DNA of 64,000 nucleotides from NCBI GenBank assembly GCA_048538235.1, contig JBLYPX010000001.1, positions 456,013 to 520,012 of the forward strand, written 5' to 3'. The stretch is from Candidatus Komeilibacteria bacterium (GTDB lineage: Bacteria > Patescibacteriota > Patescibacteriia > UBA1558). The notes below the pieces were generated by a model. It was not told where the DNA came from. It worked only from the letters and a program-made list of their open reading frames with translations, and made no database searches. How positions within the stretch are numbered: position 1 is the stretch's first letter; each line of letters starts with the position of its first letter. Below, piece after piece: positions 18,471 to 21,612 of the stretch. The translations under genes were made by a program, and so were the position numbers.

Positions 18471-18502
18471 AGAAGCATTATAGCAGGTTATATATATAAA
18501 TA

Positions 18503-18530
18503 AACCCCCTCTTAATAAAAGAGGGGGTAT
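18503..18530. terminator. Strong bidirectional terminator hairpin
   Basis: CCCCCTCT-TAATAAA-AGAGGGGG flanked by A/T runs. Terminates the minus-strand peptidase gene that ends at 18535. Confidence 0.75.
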
Positions 18531-18534
18531 TTAT

Positions 18535-20889
18535 TCACCTAAGATAATTTAACTTAATTGTTCTGGTATCACCTTTCAGTCTAAGAACTGCTAAATAAAT
18601 ACCACTAGCTAAATTACCCGCTTGCCAATCTGCTACATAATCACCTTCTGTAACAACTTTGTCTACTAATACAGCTACTCTCTGTCCCAAAATATTATAT
18701 ACTTCCATATTAACAAATTGAGTTGAGGGCACACTGTAATTAATATACACATTACTATTGAATGGGTTAGGATAACAAGTAAGTGCCTTTACTAACGCTG
18801 ATACTTCATTGTCTACAGTAACAGCTCCACCAACATCATCTAAATAATGTAAATGCACTGCATCAGCTGAGACTTCTCCATACTCATCTGAATAGCTATA
18901 CAGTATTAAATAATTTGATGAAGATTCAAGTTGGAAATTACCAACACTTACCCACTCATTACTATACACTGAACCATTTACATATATATCCTCATCTGCA
19001 AAACCAGCTCTTTGCAACACATAGTGTGCATTAGTAGAAGAATAATGCCTATTTGGTATATATATTAACAGTTCATAATTACCGGCTAGTTGCGCACCTA
19101 AACTCCACCTAGCAACCTCATTTTGGCTTGTATTTGCTACATAAAGGTAATTATTATACCCAAGTGGCAGATACTGCATTTCTTGAGCACCGGGCACAAT
19201 TTCCCAGCCATTTGTTTGTGCTTGGAATCCATTATTATATGTATGTACATACATATCGTATGAATTGCCAACTTGCCGGTTCATACTAATAAACTCCAGC
19301 ACATCATACTTATCCTCTGGAAGATTATTGTAATAACCATAACCCAAAGGATAACCATCTGACATACTTGACCAACACTCAATATGCAAATGAGGTCCGG
19401 TTGCACTACCGGTGTTTCCCAAAGTAGCAATAACTTCGCCTCTCTCAACAATAGTTTCATTTATAACAATATTGTCATAATTAACAATATTTTCTAAATG
19501 AGCATAGAGAAAATATACATTCTCGTGCAAACTACCATCGGGAAAAGAAAAATTATTACCATCTTCGGCTTGATGCTTAGTTACCATACACTTGCCCCAA
19601 CCAGCAGCATTATTATTTTTATAAACAATAACGCCATTAGCTGGTGAATGTATCATTTCACCTAAATCTCCACTCAAGCGATTCAAGTCATTACCCGAAT
19701 GGAACTTTTCGGGGTCTGCCAGAACTGATCCAAAATTCTGAGCATCATACCAATCTGCTGCAAAATCTGGGTAACCAACCGGGTAATCAAATTGAGTAGC
19801 TCTACTAGACAAATTTTGAACCATTTCAGCATAGATCGGTTCACTCTCTGTCCAACCATAATGACTATATGCCACTACAGTGTAGCGATAGGTCTGACCC
19901 ATCTCTACGCCATCATCTTCATAATCTCTAGCACCAGCTGGTAAATTAGCCATTTCTGTATCATAATCACGCCAAATAGTAAAACCAACAACAATATCAT
20001 CTTCGCTTTCCCAATGAAGAACTAAATGCTCATCACTGGTAATACTAAAAGATAAATTGTGTGGAGGATCTGGCGCTCTACCAATCGTGCTAAAGTTGTG
20101 AATTAACGGAGATAAATCCAAAACATCATCTAAATCCCTAGCTGTAATAATTAAGGTGTGATCACCAATACCAGGCCAGCAGTTTAGATAGTTATTTGGC
20201 GTCCAAAAGTCAAATGACCCATTCCCAGATAACTGAATATGATACCAAATATCCTCTGTAGAAGTATTATCGTCTAGCCCTTCCCAGGTAAAGCTAATTT
20301 CCTCATAATCGTAAGTACTAAACAATTCACAGGTCCAATTAGCATTTGGGGGTTCATTTGGAATCTCGTCATCAGTTAACGGCAATACATACCCATGTAC
20401 ACCCTCTGGTAAATAACCTGCATTAGTAAGTACCGAGATATCACTTGCATCTACAGGATACGCATGATCATCCCATTGACTATGATAATACCTTTGCCAA
20501 GCAATAAGATTGCCAGACATTGCTGGATTTAAATATCCAACCACTCCTTCATTTGTATAGCCACTAGCTACACAGTTGTCTCTTTCTGTTTCTGAGGTTG
20601 TATAGAAATGATCACTACCATTCCACAACCTATAAATAGCCACACCTGTTCCATATGAACTAGTTGACCATTTATACTTAGCGCCATGATTACTATACCC
20701 CATACTACTTTCTGCCTGATTAACTTCAGACGTGTTCATGGTGTAAAAATGATCACCAAGACTTGGGTTAAACAACTCGTACACTGGTTGCCAATTCTGG
20801 CCCATAACCAATGTTGTTAACACAACTAGCATTGCTGTTATTCTTAACATAGCAAGCTCCTTTCTTTTTTTAATGTGCAGATTTAACAA
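18535..20889 (-). CDS. Secreted multidomain M23-family metallopeptidase with N-terminal DHFYT repeats, an Fn3-like region and a T9SS-type C-terminal sorting domain
   Basis: Signal peptide. Repeats LGDHFYT and GSDHFYTT. M23 motifs FHSGNDL (HxxxD) and GPHLHIE (HxH). C-terminal ~80 aa CYPNPFNSNVYINY...GIYLAVLRLKGDTRTIKLNYLR match the Por/T9SS CTD consensus. Gene GC is visibly higher than flanking genes. Confidence 0.7.
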   Translation of the reverse strand: MLNLHIKKRKELAMLRITAMLVVLTTLVMGQNWQPVYELFNPSLGDHFYTMNTSEVNQAESSMGYSNHGAKYKWSTSSYGTGVAIYRLWNGSDHFYTTSETERDNCVASGYTNEGVVGYLNPAMSGNLIAWQRYYHSQWDDHAYPVDASDISVLTNAGYLPEGVHGYVLPLTDDEIPNEPPNANWTCELFSTYDYEEISFTWEGLDDNTSTEDIWYHIQLSGNGSFDFWTPNNYLNCWPGIGDHTLIITARDLDDVLDLSPLIHNFSTIGRAPDPPHNLSFSITSDEHLVLHWESEDDIVVGFTIWRDYDTEMANLPAGARDYEDDGVEMGQTYRYTVVAYSHYGWTESEPIYAEMVQNLSSRATQFDYPVGYPDFAADWYDAQNFGSVLADPEKFHSGNDLNRLSGDLGEMIHSPANGVIVYKNNNAAGWGKCMVTKHQAEDGNNFSFPDGSLHENVYFLYAHLENIVNYDNIVINETIVERGEVIATLGNTGSATGPHLHIECWSSMSDGYPLGYGYYNNLPEDKYDVLEFISMNRQVGNSYDMYVHTYNNGFQAQTNGWEIVPGAQEMQYLPLGYNNYLYVANTSQNEVARWSLGAQLAGNYELLIYIPNRHYSSTNAHYVLQRAGFADEDIYVNGSVYSNEWVSVGNFQLESSSNYLILYSYSDEYGEVSADAVHLHYLDDVGGAVTVDNEVSALVKALTCYPNPFNSNVYINYSVPSTQFVNMEVYNILGQRVAVLVDKVVTEGDYVADWQAGNLASGIYLAVLRLKGDTRTIKLNYLR

Positions 20890-21560
20890 ACCCTAATACA
20901 AAAAACACAAGAATAGACCCTGTGTTTTTTTAAATGAAAAAGTCGCCAAAATATGGGCGACCCTGAACTTCACACTATGATATAGTGTTACAAAATATTT
21001 GTCAAATAAACAATTAACCCCAGGCAAATTCTATCTTACGTCACTATCTTTCCGATAAGCGATTCCTAAATAGCATTTACCTGGGGCGGGTTCCACTCAG
21101 GGTAGGTTCTGTGATTATCCACCTCGTTCATTCAGAGGTACAAATAATTCCCCAACATGTACATTTGCGTACACGGTCAAAGCGATCATTATGATCATCT
21201 ATTCTCATTCCCTATTGTGAATATATTTACATTACATTTAAATATTATTACTGTCAAACAAAAAACCCCAGATGTGCTTACCACTTCTTCCTATGTTCAA
21301 GTCTGTACGACATGAATGCAATGGAATGTGTTCAACACATCGGGGGTTTGATTTGGGTGGGATTCGGGCTTTATAATGCAGAAATCTTGGTTCTGCAGCC
21401 TCCCTGAGTACATTATGTACCCGTTTCAGCCGAAGCTGTTTTTGTTGGTAACCCAACTGACTATGTCTGACGGCCTGTTAACCGTCTGTCCTTTTATCAT
21501 TCTCCGTAGAGAACAATAGATACACTTTATACCTACTATAAAAATATGTCAACAGTGTCC
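20890..21560. other. About 670-nt GC-elevated noncoding region rich in short GC hairpins (candidate structured ncRNA or decayed foreign DNA)
   Basis: No credible ORF in six frames. Many stem-loops with tetraloops (CAGC-CGAA-GCTG, GTTGG-TAAC-CCAAC, GACGG-CCTGTTAA-CCGTC, CTGCAG...CTGCAG, GTCGCC...GGCGAC). GC content is far above the ~30% of surrounding DNA. Confidence 0.35.
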
Positions 21561-21569
21561 TGTGGATTA

Positions 21570-21600
21570 AAAAAGAGCTGTTATATACAGCTCTTTTTAT
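21570..21600. terminator. Bidirectional terminator hairpin
   Basis: AAAAAGAGCTGT-TATAT-ACAGCTCTTTTTAT, immediately downstream of the 21613..21852 gene. Confidence 0.7.
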
Positions 21601-21612
21601 ATAGAAGAAATA

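Follow-up and report, generated by a model that had tools for sequence, protein, structure and literature searches.

What is a T9SS sorting domain doing at the end of a predicted cell-wall hydrolase of Candidatus Komeilibacteria? Domains of this kind count as hallmarks both of outer-membrane secretion and of the FCB superphylum, and here one is found, conserved and under selection, in a CPR lineage that is thought to be single-membraned. The earlier note on this DNA proposed that a lytic enzyme had been acquired horizontally from a Bacteroidota-like donor on an island of ~3.1 kb, or else that the contig was a chimeric assembly join; I will argue that the gene is probably a long-standing and vertically inherited resident of Komeilibacteria, encoding a secreted peptidase that carries an ancient C-terminal domain (CTD). 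The sequence analyzed, called the window below, is a 64-kb stretch of an 860-kb contig, and the gene, its domains and its upstream elements are all encoded on the minus strand.

The gene model comes first, since the 784-aa length initially reported must be shortened. That reading begins at a TTG (18535..20889, -) and places the ribosome binding site AAAGGAG (20863-20857) within its own extension, 7 nt 5' of an ATG at 20850 that is the start in every orthologue and in the NCBI model (P0001, 771 aa); the true CDS is therefore 18535-20850, stop codon included, and encodes 771 aa. Domain residue ranges are quoted here in the 784-aa (TTG) numbering and catalytic residues in the 771-aa numbering. 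The domains themselves had been read correctly (a secreted protein with a signal peptide, DHFYT repeats and an M23 domain), as judged from profile matches and, for the signal peptide, from inspection. Residues 1-17 (20800..20850; MLRITAMLVVLTTLVMG, followed by QNWQP) look like a Sec-type signal peptide, being hydrophobic with an AxA-like site and small residues at -1 and -3, and form a helix (2-17) in the structure model. Next comes DUF5648 (20383..20787; residues 35-169, 95.7 bits), three repeats with the DHFYT motif and a modelled beta-beta-alpha secondary structure, followed by two tandem FnIII/Ig-like beta-sandwich domains (19816..20343), recognized by the fn3 profile (residues 274-353, 27 bits against a cutoff of 25) and by Foldseek searches of the PDB. 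The Peptidase_M23 catalytic domain (19369..19704; residues 396-507) is followed by a Golvesin_C-type beta-sandwich (18847..19155; residues 579-681, 52.3 bits against 31.6), a putative binding module, and the CTD occupies the last 79 residues (18538..18774).

The M23 domain matches PF01551 at 48.4 bits, above the gathering cutoff of 28.7, and the HxxxD and HxH catalytic motifs noticed at the outset are indeed present: H384 and D388 (HSGND), the third histidine H451, and H487 and H489 (HLH) are invariant in nine orthologues; in P0004-P0007 the precomputed PF01551 match is weak or absent and the M23 motifs are nevertheless kept. The same HxxxD / H / HxH zinc site is found in the LytM/lysostaphin-type enzymes of known structure, such as Helicobacter pylori Csd3 (4rny), Vibrio ShyA (6u2a) and 8s3m, although in sequence these solved enzymes are only remotely similar to it (E 1e-4 to 1e-2), and the searches found the combination of an M23 domain with DUF5648, two FnIII domains, Golvesin_C and a CTD only in Komeilibacteria. 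The closest named relatives of the M23 domain belong to the Bacteroidota (Marinifilaceae, Flavobacterium, Myroides). The protein would thus be a zinc-dependent M23 peptidoglycan endopeptidase acting outside the cytoplasmic membrane, presumably exported by the Sec pathway through its N-terminal signal peptide.

The claim of a T9SS sorting domain also holds, and the C-terminus is a bona fide type A CTD. It exceeds the cutoffs of both TIGR04183 (37.9 bits versus 23) and Por_Secre_tail PF18962 (33.2 versus 27; residues 706-773), and lies at the extreme C-terminus (residues 706-780 of 784). The PNPFN motif and the G, W, K and Y are invariant in the orthologues, and the hallmarks YPNPFN, the beta3-beta4 loop glycine and the last-strand lysine are invariant or nearly so; these hallmark motifs, including the latter two residues, are described as functionally relevant (PMC11285876). 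The structure modelled for the whole protein has moderate confidence (pLDDT 69), and tandem FnIII ectodomains dominated the matches of the whole protein in Foldseek (PDB), making that search uninformative, so the CTD was modelled on its own. The separate model (pLDDT 87) is a seven-stranded Ig-like fold, six long strands and a short N-terminal one, in keeping with the 3+4 beta-sandwich of type A CTDs (PMC11285876), that matches the CTDs of mirolase, NucA, RemA and PorZ (8qb1, 8glk_D, 8gl6_D and 5m11 are among the matches, with TM 0.6-0.66), with weak E-values and with generic Ig folds scoring similarly. In its overall plan the protein resembles type A T9SS cargo such as Porphyromonas gingivalis RgpB, Tannerella forsythia mirolase and Flavobacterium johnsoniae RemA/NucA, that is, a secreted hydrolase with a Sec signal peptide and a C-terminal seven-strand Ig-like CTD of about 80 residues bearing YPNPF, Gly, GxY and a last-strand Lys. 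The domain is also under purifying selection (pN.31 versus pS.68, dN/dS about 0.2, compared with ~0.1 for the M23 domain), values that are rough because dS is near saturation, and the linker preceding it is just 30-40% identical among orthologues.

Was the gene then recently imported from the FCB group? When 5.8 billion proteins were searched, all full-length homologues (40-71% identity) came from other Komeilibacteria/Patescibacteria assemblies and none from an FCB bacterium. Synteny of the locus extends to at least six independent assemblies (the syntenic set includes GCA_041294325.1, FLOH01001469, Black Sea BS150m-G51, JGI 3300004210/3300025288, ERZ27293412, GCA_048538275.1, GCA_043819715.1 and Crystal Geyser PFMC01), with the order gap, LiaF-like ORF, M23/CTD gene and trmH/PAS/HK/RR/pilus genes in close relatives, and gap, M23/CTD gene and DUF389/PGK/enolase in more distant ones. 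The LiaF-like neighbor in the window (21613..21852) encodes a LiaF/LiaI-like transmembrane protein of 79 aa whose tail is rich in Cys/His. A chimeric join, in which a Bacteroidota fragment was assembled or binned into a CPR contig, would account for the shifts in composition near 18.5 and 21.6 kb and for nothing else; with the same gene and the same neighbors recovered from different samples through different pipelines, and with the flanking intergenic promoter and leader conserved as well, this possibility is vanishingly small.

Recent transfer of a lytic-enzyme island from a Bacteroidota-like donor has more to be said for it, beginning with composition. The gene (37.5% GC) and its 762-nt upstream spacer (20851-21612; 37.3%) stand about five points above the window (32.3%), trmH and gap having 29.3% and 33.5%, and no interval of the window has a larger tetranucleotide distance than 18501-20800 (z=3.7). 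The GC deviation pointed out earlier is thus real, as is the tetranucleotide one, while the codon-level part of that claim is modest: GC3 is 0.264 versus 0.206+-0.048 (z=1.2), and four other genes exceed the M23 gene in GC. The GC expected from the amino-acid composition is already.356, which leaves an unremarkable residual of +1.9 points (z=1.14), whereas two unrelated genes in the window reach z>3.4. The excess is mainly a product of the unusual amino-acid composition of the protein, poor in Lys/Ile and rich in Tyr/Trp/Gly, from which about 60% of it follows; what sets the gene apart in its tetranucleotides is explained only in part. Moreover, the GC offset recurs in every sister, with gene/flank values of.375/.323,.352/.315,.419/.387,.348/.307 and.380/.360 per locus, so that each orthologue tracks its host genome while lying 2-5 points above its own flanks.

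Two further features lean toward a Bacteroidota donor, namely that the closest non-CPR relatives of both the CTD and the M23 domain are in FCB/Bacteroidota, and that the glutamine at +1 after the signal peptide, present in all 8 of the orthologues that have the N-terminus, resembles the Bacteroidetes Q-rule. The latter was set aside as a signature and kept as a weak hint, coming as it does from a single protein whose Gln belongs to a conserved domain start; Ala or Thr occupies +1 in two further window proteins with a signal peptide. Against this stand homologues that remain within the Komeilibacteria/Patescibacteria down to 40% identity, the conserved position and neighbors, the scaling of the offset with host GC, and the small synonymous-level deviation, and the hallmarks of an island were likewise missing, with no tRNA/tmRNA (ARAGORN), integrase or meaningful flanking repeats in the window and with every related assembly recovered carrying the gene in syntenic position. 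The terminators said to bracket the island do exist, at 18504-18528 (a 10-bp GC-rich stem and U run) and at 21569-21598 (a hairpin conserved in sister loci L008 and L016), and they are ordinary terminators, the former serving the M23 gene and the latter the upstream small ORF. Best matches in sister CPR genomes of similar GC, the outcome fixed beforehand as refuting, are what the homologue search returned, and with them both the recent-transfer and the chimera readings fail; I regard recent transfer as very improbable.

An older debt to the FCB group is another matter. In a profile search of the protein database, the nearest CTDs came from Ignavibacteriota, Melioribacteraceae, Bacteroidota, Zixibacteria and Marinimicrobia, a search so swamped by FCB fragments that it yields no count of CTD-bearing CPR proteins. 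Given that the closest relatives of the CTD lie in the FCB group, an ancient domain-level origin there is plausible, perhaps for the M23 module too, and the CTD was probably gained, as a domain or together with an ancestral gene, before the sampled Komeilibacteria diverged. The locus would then be a tangible trace of genes or domains having passed between FCB bacteria and Komeilibacteria in the distant past, a flow that could hint at the partners of these uncultured epibionts.

What, then, has the CTD been kept for? None of the 58 of 63 ORFs scanned in the window encodes a T9SS or outer-membrane family, PorV, PorU and SprA were not found near the M23 gene in the window or in the scanned flanks of sister loci, and a CTD-HMM scan of the window and of sister loci L001-L007 turned up no further ORF with a CTD. 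Real T9SS cargo loci look different, since a genuine T9SS genome neighborhood holds PorV and three CTD proteins inside 18 kb, whereas here a single CTD protein was seen in the window and the sister flanks scanned, in a Patescibacterium in which neither an outer membrane nor a T9SS is expected. The literature searched held no relevant report of a T9SS or CTD in CPR, Patescibacteria or Komeilibacteria; T9SS genes are described as absent outside the FCB phyla (PMC11285876), and an outer membrane has been proposed to be absent in Patescibacteria (PMC12102498). Secretion through a T9SS is thus unlikely, and in a lineage thought to be without outer membrane and T9SS, a CTD under purifying selection has most likely lost its function as a T9SS signal and probably has a T9SS-independent role. 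A domain that persists without its machinery implies another function, and the CTD is probably kept as a surface, anchoring or binding module with an Ig-like fold. It also follows that a lone CTD match in CPR MAGs should be taken neither as evidence for T9SS secretion nor as a sign of contamination.

Still, the residues that the CTD retains are precisely those required for T9SS recognition, and this would be unexpected if it were purely a structural relic. It might conceivably still be a working recognition module, either in an undescribed CTD-dependent route of surface attachment in single-membrane cells or by docking the lytic enzyme onto the PorV/T9SS components of an FCB host, and in the latter case such a mimic would also give a clue to which hosts Komeilibacteria use. 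Purifying selection and the retained beta3-beta4 Gly and last-strand Lys would suit this idea, as would the kinship with CTDs of Ignavibacteriota, Bacteroidota and Zixibacteria, groups that live in the same anoxic aquatic and subsurface settings as these MAGs, one sister MAG being labeled as a Black Sea 150-m isolate and another as Crystal Geyser-type 'CG'. Set against it are the T9SS/PorV/PorU-like genes and second CTD cargo that were not found in the 64-kb window or the sister flanks, the reported restriction of the T9SS to FCB bacteria, and the poor interchangeability of CTDs even across Bacteroidota species (PMC11285876), so that the idea must be considered quite unlikely.

Returning to the long-resident secreted peptidase, the question is whose wall it cuts. 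The DUF5648 repeats, the two FnIII-like domains and the Golvesin_C sandwich probably position the enzyme on a glycan or cell-wall substrate, and the most likely substrate would be a partner's or host's cell wall in an epibiotic lifestyle, with the organism's own wall as the less likely alternative. A precedent is provided by Ca. Southlakia epibionticum ML1: peptidase and lysozyme genes are given as essential for the epibiotic growth of a Saccharibacterium (PMC12102498), and such genes adjoin virB4 in ML1 (as cited in PMC12102498). The Komeilibacteria protein is similarly predicted from its sequence to be a secreted wall-degrading enzyme of an ultra-small, presumably host-dependent Patescibacterium, but it has no link to a T4SS locus (its neighbors are gap and trmH, with type IV pilus genes 3-13 kb off) and it differs in enzyme family and architecture.

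The alternative, a housekeeping autolysin that serves the cell's own division or wall remodelling with everything else as described above, is less likely, yet it has points in its favor: the organism makes peptidoglycan, with FtsW/RodA and Glu racemase encoded in the window; the gene is conserved, single-copy and set amid core housekeeping genes; and the NCBI product name is 'peptidoglycan DD-metalloendopeptidase family protein'. Division factors of the EnvC/NlpD type have coiled-coil or LysM domains and active sites that are often degenerate, whereas here the architecture differs and the active site is intact. The signal peptide, lectin-like repeats, FnIII domains, CBM-like sandwich and surface-sorting tail are typical of secreted targeting hydrolases, and the strongly Lys-poor, Tyr/Trp-rich composition resembles that of extracellular binding proteins, all of which speaks against a housekeeping autolysin.

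The spacer upstream of the gene, which had been called noncoding, holds a conserved promoter and leader, together with two RNA units that are highly structured and resemble cassettes. The M23 gene is served by promoter P3 (20977..21005; TTGACA-17-TATCAT), whose -35 element and TAnnnT -10 are invariant in nine orthologous loci, and the 5' leader (20851..20964) contains two hairpins with U runs, a CCUUU/AAAGG element and the ribosome binding site. The first, promoter-proximal hairpin and U run (20964-20939) is terminator-like and is kept in 9/9 loci with different stem sequences, and the second lies at ~20926-20900; a conserved sigma70-type promoter followed by a terminator-like leader hairpin suggests attenuation-type control.

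Further upstream, RNA2 (21010..21257) has its own promoter P2 (TTGACA 21257-21252, TAATGT 21234-21229), a long terminator hairpin and a conserved structured 5' domain, and its folding z is -3.65; the 5' domain shares 82% identity with its L016 counterpart, as against 72% in the M23 gene. Reading RNA2 as coding (a 27-codon ORF) was rejected because the frame is interrupted by a stop at codon 7 in L016. RNA1 (21258..21552) has promoter P1 (TTGACA 21552-21547, -10 TAAAGT), a chain of short hairpins, a GGGAGGC...GCCCGAAUCCC junction and a long terminator hairpin with U run (MFE -97 kcal/mol, z=-7.1). Rfam 15 gave no match at gathering level across the whole window, and permissive E-values applied to its spacer and to those of L016 and L008 gave terminator-like chance matches only, with no recurring family. 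The ydaO (c-di-AMP) riboswitch is linked to wall hydrolases and was considered for a similarity to 'CCCGAAUCC'; it had no Rfam support. Neither blastn searches of the window and all loci nor a mismatch search of the window found copies of the RNA units beyond L001/L002/L016, and IMG/VR pattern scans and a phage BLAST added none. The spacer thus offers a lead unrelated to the peptidase, that of structured cassettes, bounded by promoters and terminators, that are swapped among genomes otherwise 91-95% identical across the locus. Elsewhere in the window, a DGR is located at 60.5-63.1 kb.

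The minus-strand gene under study encodes a secreted M23 peptidase ending in a T9SS-type C-terminal sorting domain (CTD), and its significance is that a CTD-tagged M23 hydrolase is maintained in a lineage expected to be without a T9SS. The open reading frame exists as called (18535..20889 on the minus strand, with a TTG start and 784 aa), and the earlier note took this full length for the secreted protein; however, the ribosome-binding site AAAGGAG (20863-20857) lies inside the TTG extension, ahead of the ATG at 20850 at which all orthologues and the NCBI model P0001 (771 aa, 100% identical) begin, so the TTG reading was dropped and the coding sequence is 18535-20850, 771 aa. 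Five domains score over their Pfam cutoffs, namely DUF5648 (95.7 bits), which corresponds to the DHFYT repeats already noticed, fn3, Peptidase_M23 (48.4 bits, cutoff 28.7), Golvesin_C (52.3, cutoff 31.6) and Por_Secre_tail (33.2, cutoff 27), and the protein also matches TIGR04183 (NCBIfam), the profile that the earlier note had named for its T9SS-type CTD, at 37.9 against a cutoff of 23. The proposed catalytic M23 domain is borne out by HxxxD and HxH motifs that, with a third His, are invariant across nine orthologues, and the N-terminus, also as proposed, is a predicted signal peptide of typical shape, judged by inspection.

The CTD occupies the extreme C-terminus and is modelled as an Ig-like sandwich of seven strands (pLDDT 87), the best PDB matches of which include solved CTDs, those of mirolase (8qb1), NucA and RemA on the translocon (8glk_D, 8gl6_D) and PorZ (5m11), at TM scores of 0.6-0.66 with weak E-values and with generic Ig domains scoring equally. 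The Gly of the beta3-beta4 loop and the Lys of the last strand, both found relevant to secretion (PMC11285876), are kept, and on each sequence and fold feature tested the predicted domain reads as a T9SS type A CTD. Compared with L016, one of the orthologous loci in sister assemblies, it is 56% identical and the other folded domains 72-79%, making it the least conserved folded domain of the family; the linker before it is far less kept (30-40% identical in close pairs), and a pN of 0.31 against a pS of 0.68, rough as these ratios are with dS near saturation, points to a CTD still under purifying selection.

T9SS genes are absent outside the FCB phyla (PMC11285876), and Patescibacteria are proposed to be without an outer membrane (PMC12102498). 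The Pfam scan took in 58 of the 63 ORFs called in the 64-kb window, the other ~800 kb of the genome lying outside it, and found no match to the PorV, SprA, PorU, GldK-N, BamA or TonB-dependent receptor families among them, nor was there a second CTD protein in the window or in the flanks of sister loci L001-L007; by contrast, the 18 kb around P0032, an unrelated CTD protein, contain PorV, three CTD proteins and a TonB-type OMP. I would not file the protein as T9SS cargo, but as the bearer of a T9SS-type CTD, and that CTD is most likely a T9SS-independent Ig-like module. That its recognition role is still functional, either in some unspecified pathway of its own or by docking onto a host's PorV/T9SS, seems to me quite improbable.

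The earlier note had seen a GC-elevated island and suggested that it was acquired horizontally or produced by a chimeric assembly join. Its compositional observation stands: GC is 37.5% in the M23 gene and 37.3% in the 762-nt upstream spacer, against 32.3% in the whole window, 29.3% in trmH and 33.5% in gap, and in a 2.3-kb tetranucleotide scan no stretch departs more from the window average than 18501-20800 (z=3.7), the next, at z=2.9, being one that encodes a 979-aa pseudopilin/adhesin, another large secreted protein. The deviation is real, yet mostly not synonymous: the protein's amino-acid composition (Lys 1.4% versus 9.0% elsewhere, Ile 4.5% versus 8.7%, Tyr 8.0% versus 3.6%, Trp 2.6% versus 1.0%) together with the window's codon preferences predicts 35.6% GC, leaving a residual of +1.9 points (z=1.14) that is exceeded in two unrelated genes (22968-23456, z=3.4; 62389-63066, z=3.8), and GC3 is 0.264 against 0.206+-0.048. 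The first of these two, a minus-strand 162-aa membrane-protein ORF without a Pfam match, has the window's maximal GC3 (0.42) and is, by its codon-level GC excess, far more foreign-looking than the M23 gene; its place in L007, between PSP1 and gap, is taken by a 191-aa ORF, likewise without a Pfam match.

Among about 5.8 billion proteins searched, full-length relatives occur only in Komeilibacteria/Patescibacteria (70, 64, 48, 43, 42 and 40% identity), all with identical architecture including the CTD, and the remaining matches share DUF5648 alone or the CTD alone. Downstream gene order in the 64-71% relatives matches the window exactly (SpoU/TrmH methylase, PAS protein, 288-aa protein, histidine kinase, response regulator, type IV pilus genes), gap and the small LiaF-like ORF also precede the M23 gene in L008 and L016, and in the 42-49% relatives gap once more precedes the gene, whether or not the small ORF is present, and on the 3' side come DUF389 or, in L026, small ORFs and then PGK/enolase. 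In each sister genome the orthologue's GC lies 2-5 points over its own flanks and tracks that genome (.352/.315,.419/.387,.348/.307,.380/.360), and the borders of the locus are marked by no tRNA in the window, no mobility gene among its Pfam-scanned ORFs and no meaningful flanking repeats. Because the syntenic loci were sampled and assembled independently, a chimeric join is excluded, and because the best matches are sister CPR genomes with the gene in the same position, GC scaling with the host and unmarked borders, recent horizontal acquisition falls as well; the story of an island, recently transferred or chimeric, is refuted. The L026 locus (JGI 3300045909 contig Ga0496406_003237) is itself broken into several ORFs, as are PGK, iPGM and BacA on that contig, and these contig-wide frameshifts look like sequencing errors, not pseudogenisation.

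Searching with a profile built on the Komeilibacteria CTDs brings up thousands of CTDs that are 35-53% identical, and since the named ones span Ignavibacteriota/Ignavibacteriales, Melioribacteraceae, Bacteroidota, Zixibacteria and Marinimicrobia, the tag that had been called Bacteroidota-type is FCB-type, but not specifically that of Bacteroidota. Outside Komeilibacteria, a profile of M23+Golvesin_C finds weak relatives only (best E 1e-17, unnamed), the first named ones being Marinifilaceae, Flavobacterium and Myroides, all Bacteroidota (E 1e-9 to 1e-4). Gln directly follows the predicted signal-peptidase site in all eight orthologues that have an N-terminus, recalling the Bacteroidetes Q-rule (PMC5837995); this is a weak hint, since the Gln is part of the conserved DUF5648 start, and is weakened further by the Ala or Thr found there in the window's two other signal-peptide proteins. 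The most economical reading, which I consider rather probable, is an ancient transfer, probably at the level of a domain, from an FCB bacterium, predating the divergence of the Komeilibacteria sampled.

In this protein known domains are newly combined, an arrangement thus far limited to Komeilibacteria; some orthologues already carry the PGAP label 'T9SS type A sorting domain-containing protein', and I found no paper discussing T9SS CTDs in CPR. With an intact M23 zinc site, a predicted signal peptide, four non-catalytic beta-rich modules and the CTD, it would be exported through Sec across a single membrane, the DUF5648, FnIII and Golvesin_C modules would position it, and the M23 domain would then cleave peptidoglycan peptide bridges. 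Such an architecture is closer to that of secreted, targeting lytic enzymes than to that of EnvC/NlpD-type division factors. Because of this resemblance, and because wall hydrolases are reported, in work cited by PMC12102498, to be essential to the epibiotic growth of a Saccharibacterium, I hold the wall of a partner cell to be the likelier target, at roughly even chances, than the cell's own wall in a purely autolytic role, which seems rather doubtful.

All nine orthologous loci compared (window 20851-21005 and L003, L006, L007, L008, L010, L016, L018 and L019) have, directly upstream of the M23 gene, a TTGACA that never varies, separated by a 17-nt spacer from a -10 of the form TAnnnT (21005-20977 in the window, minus strand), and about 10-25 nt later a hairpin with a U run (hairpin at 20964-20939, minus strand), the stem sequence of which varies by lineage with pairing kept; on the window's minus strand a second hairpin and U run and then a CCUUU/AAAGG element come before the ribosome-binding site. 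In my reading, a conserved promoter is followed here by a promoter-proximal leader resembling a terminator, a candidate for an attenuator or operator controlling the M23 gene. In most loci read (seven among those with promoter-upstream sequence examined), the first promoter to follow the preceding gene has a conserved TCCACAG motif immediately before it, and L006, with a different upstream neighbour, has TCCACCAC in its place.

In the noncoding stretch at 20851-21612, here described in minus-strand direction, the window has between the small ORF's terminator (21598-21569) and the M23 promoter module two extra, strongly structured units, RNA1 (about 21517-21258, MFE -97 kcal/mol, z=-7.1) and RNA2 (about 21222-21010, folding z=-3.65), each with its own TTGACA promoter and a long hairpin and U run at its end. 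A coding reading of RNA2 was rejected, its 27-codon ORF being broken in L016. Both units occur in L016 and L001, and the 5' domain of RNA2 is 82% identical between window and L016 (M23 gene 72%, gap 83%). L008 and L016 share 91-95% identity over gap, small ORF, leader, M23 gene and trmH, but L008 carries instead one unrelated unit of ~300 nt (55% identity) that shares the 3' end only, 'GCCCGAWUCCC - long hairpin - GGGGUUUUU - TTGACA'; more distant relatives have no insert in the slot, which covers 21010-21552 (minus) in the window, 3277-3835 in L016 and 5516-5822 in L008. Because unrelated units sit in otherwise 91-95% identical loci, the spacer reads as a slot for exchangeable cassettes, and the comparison, which covers two or three distinct sequences of each unit, suggests modular turnover of units of structured RNA, terminator and TTGACA promoter. 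No Rfam family matches the RNA1/RNA2 spacer, and no further copies were found by blastn against the window and all loci, a mismatch search of the window, IMG/VR pattern scans or phage BLAST.

Elsewhere in the window, a minus-strand type IV pilus cluster (4222-15956) encodes PilM, PilB/T2SSE, PilC/T2SSF and several pseudopilins, including the 979-aa Laminin_G/CBM pseudopilin of deviant tetranucleotide usage, and with the PAS histidine kinase and response regulator lies 3-16 kb downstream of the M23 gene. Its synteny extends to close relatives in the part sampled, which in L001 comprises histidine kinase, response regulator, T2SSE, T2SSF, GspH-like and large pseudopilin genes and in L004-L006 the first genes only. 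The whole 64-kb window holds no tRNA genes or Rfam gathering-level RNAs. An HTH and SocA/Panacea antitoxin-domain protein (55765-56454, minus strand) overlaps a 130-aa ORF (55383-55775), a possible toxin-antitoxin pair. Finally, a complete diversity-generating retroelement, a known kind of element that is common in CPR, lies at 60558-63099, with a reverse transcriptase (60558-61622, minus; RVT_1, LGNVTSQ and YSDD motifs), bAvd (61560-61937, plus), a template repeat (about 61990-62075, minus) and a target gene (62389-63099, minus) whose 3' end bears the variable repeat, and all nine mismatches between the two repeats fall at template adenines.
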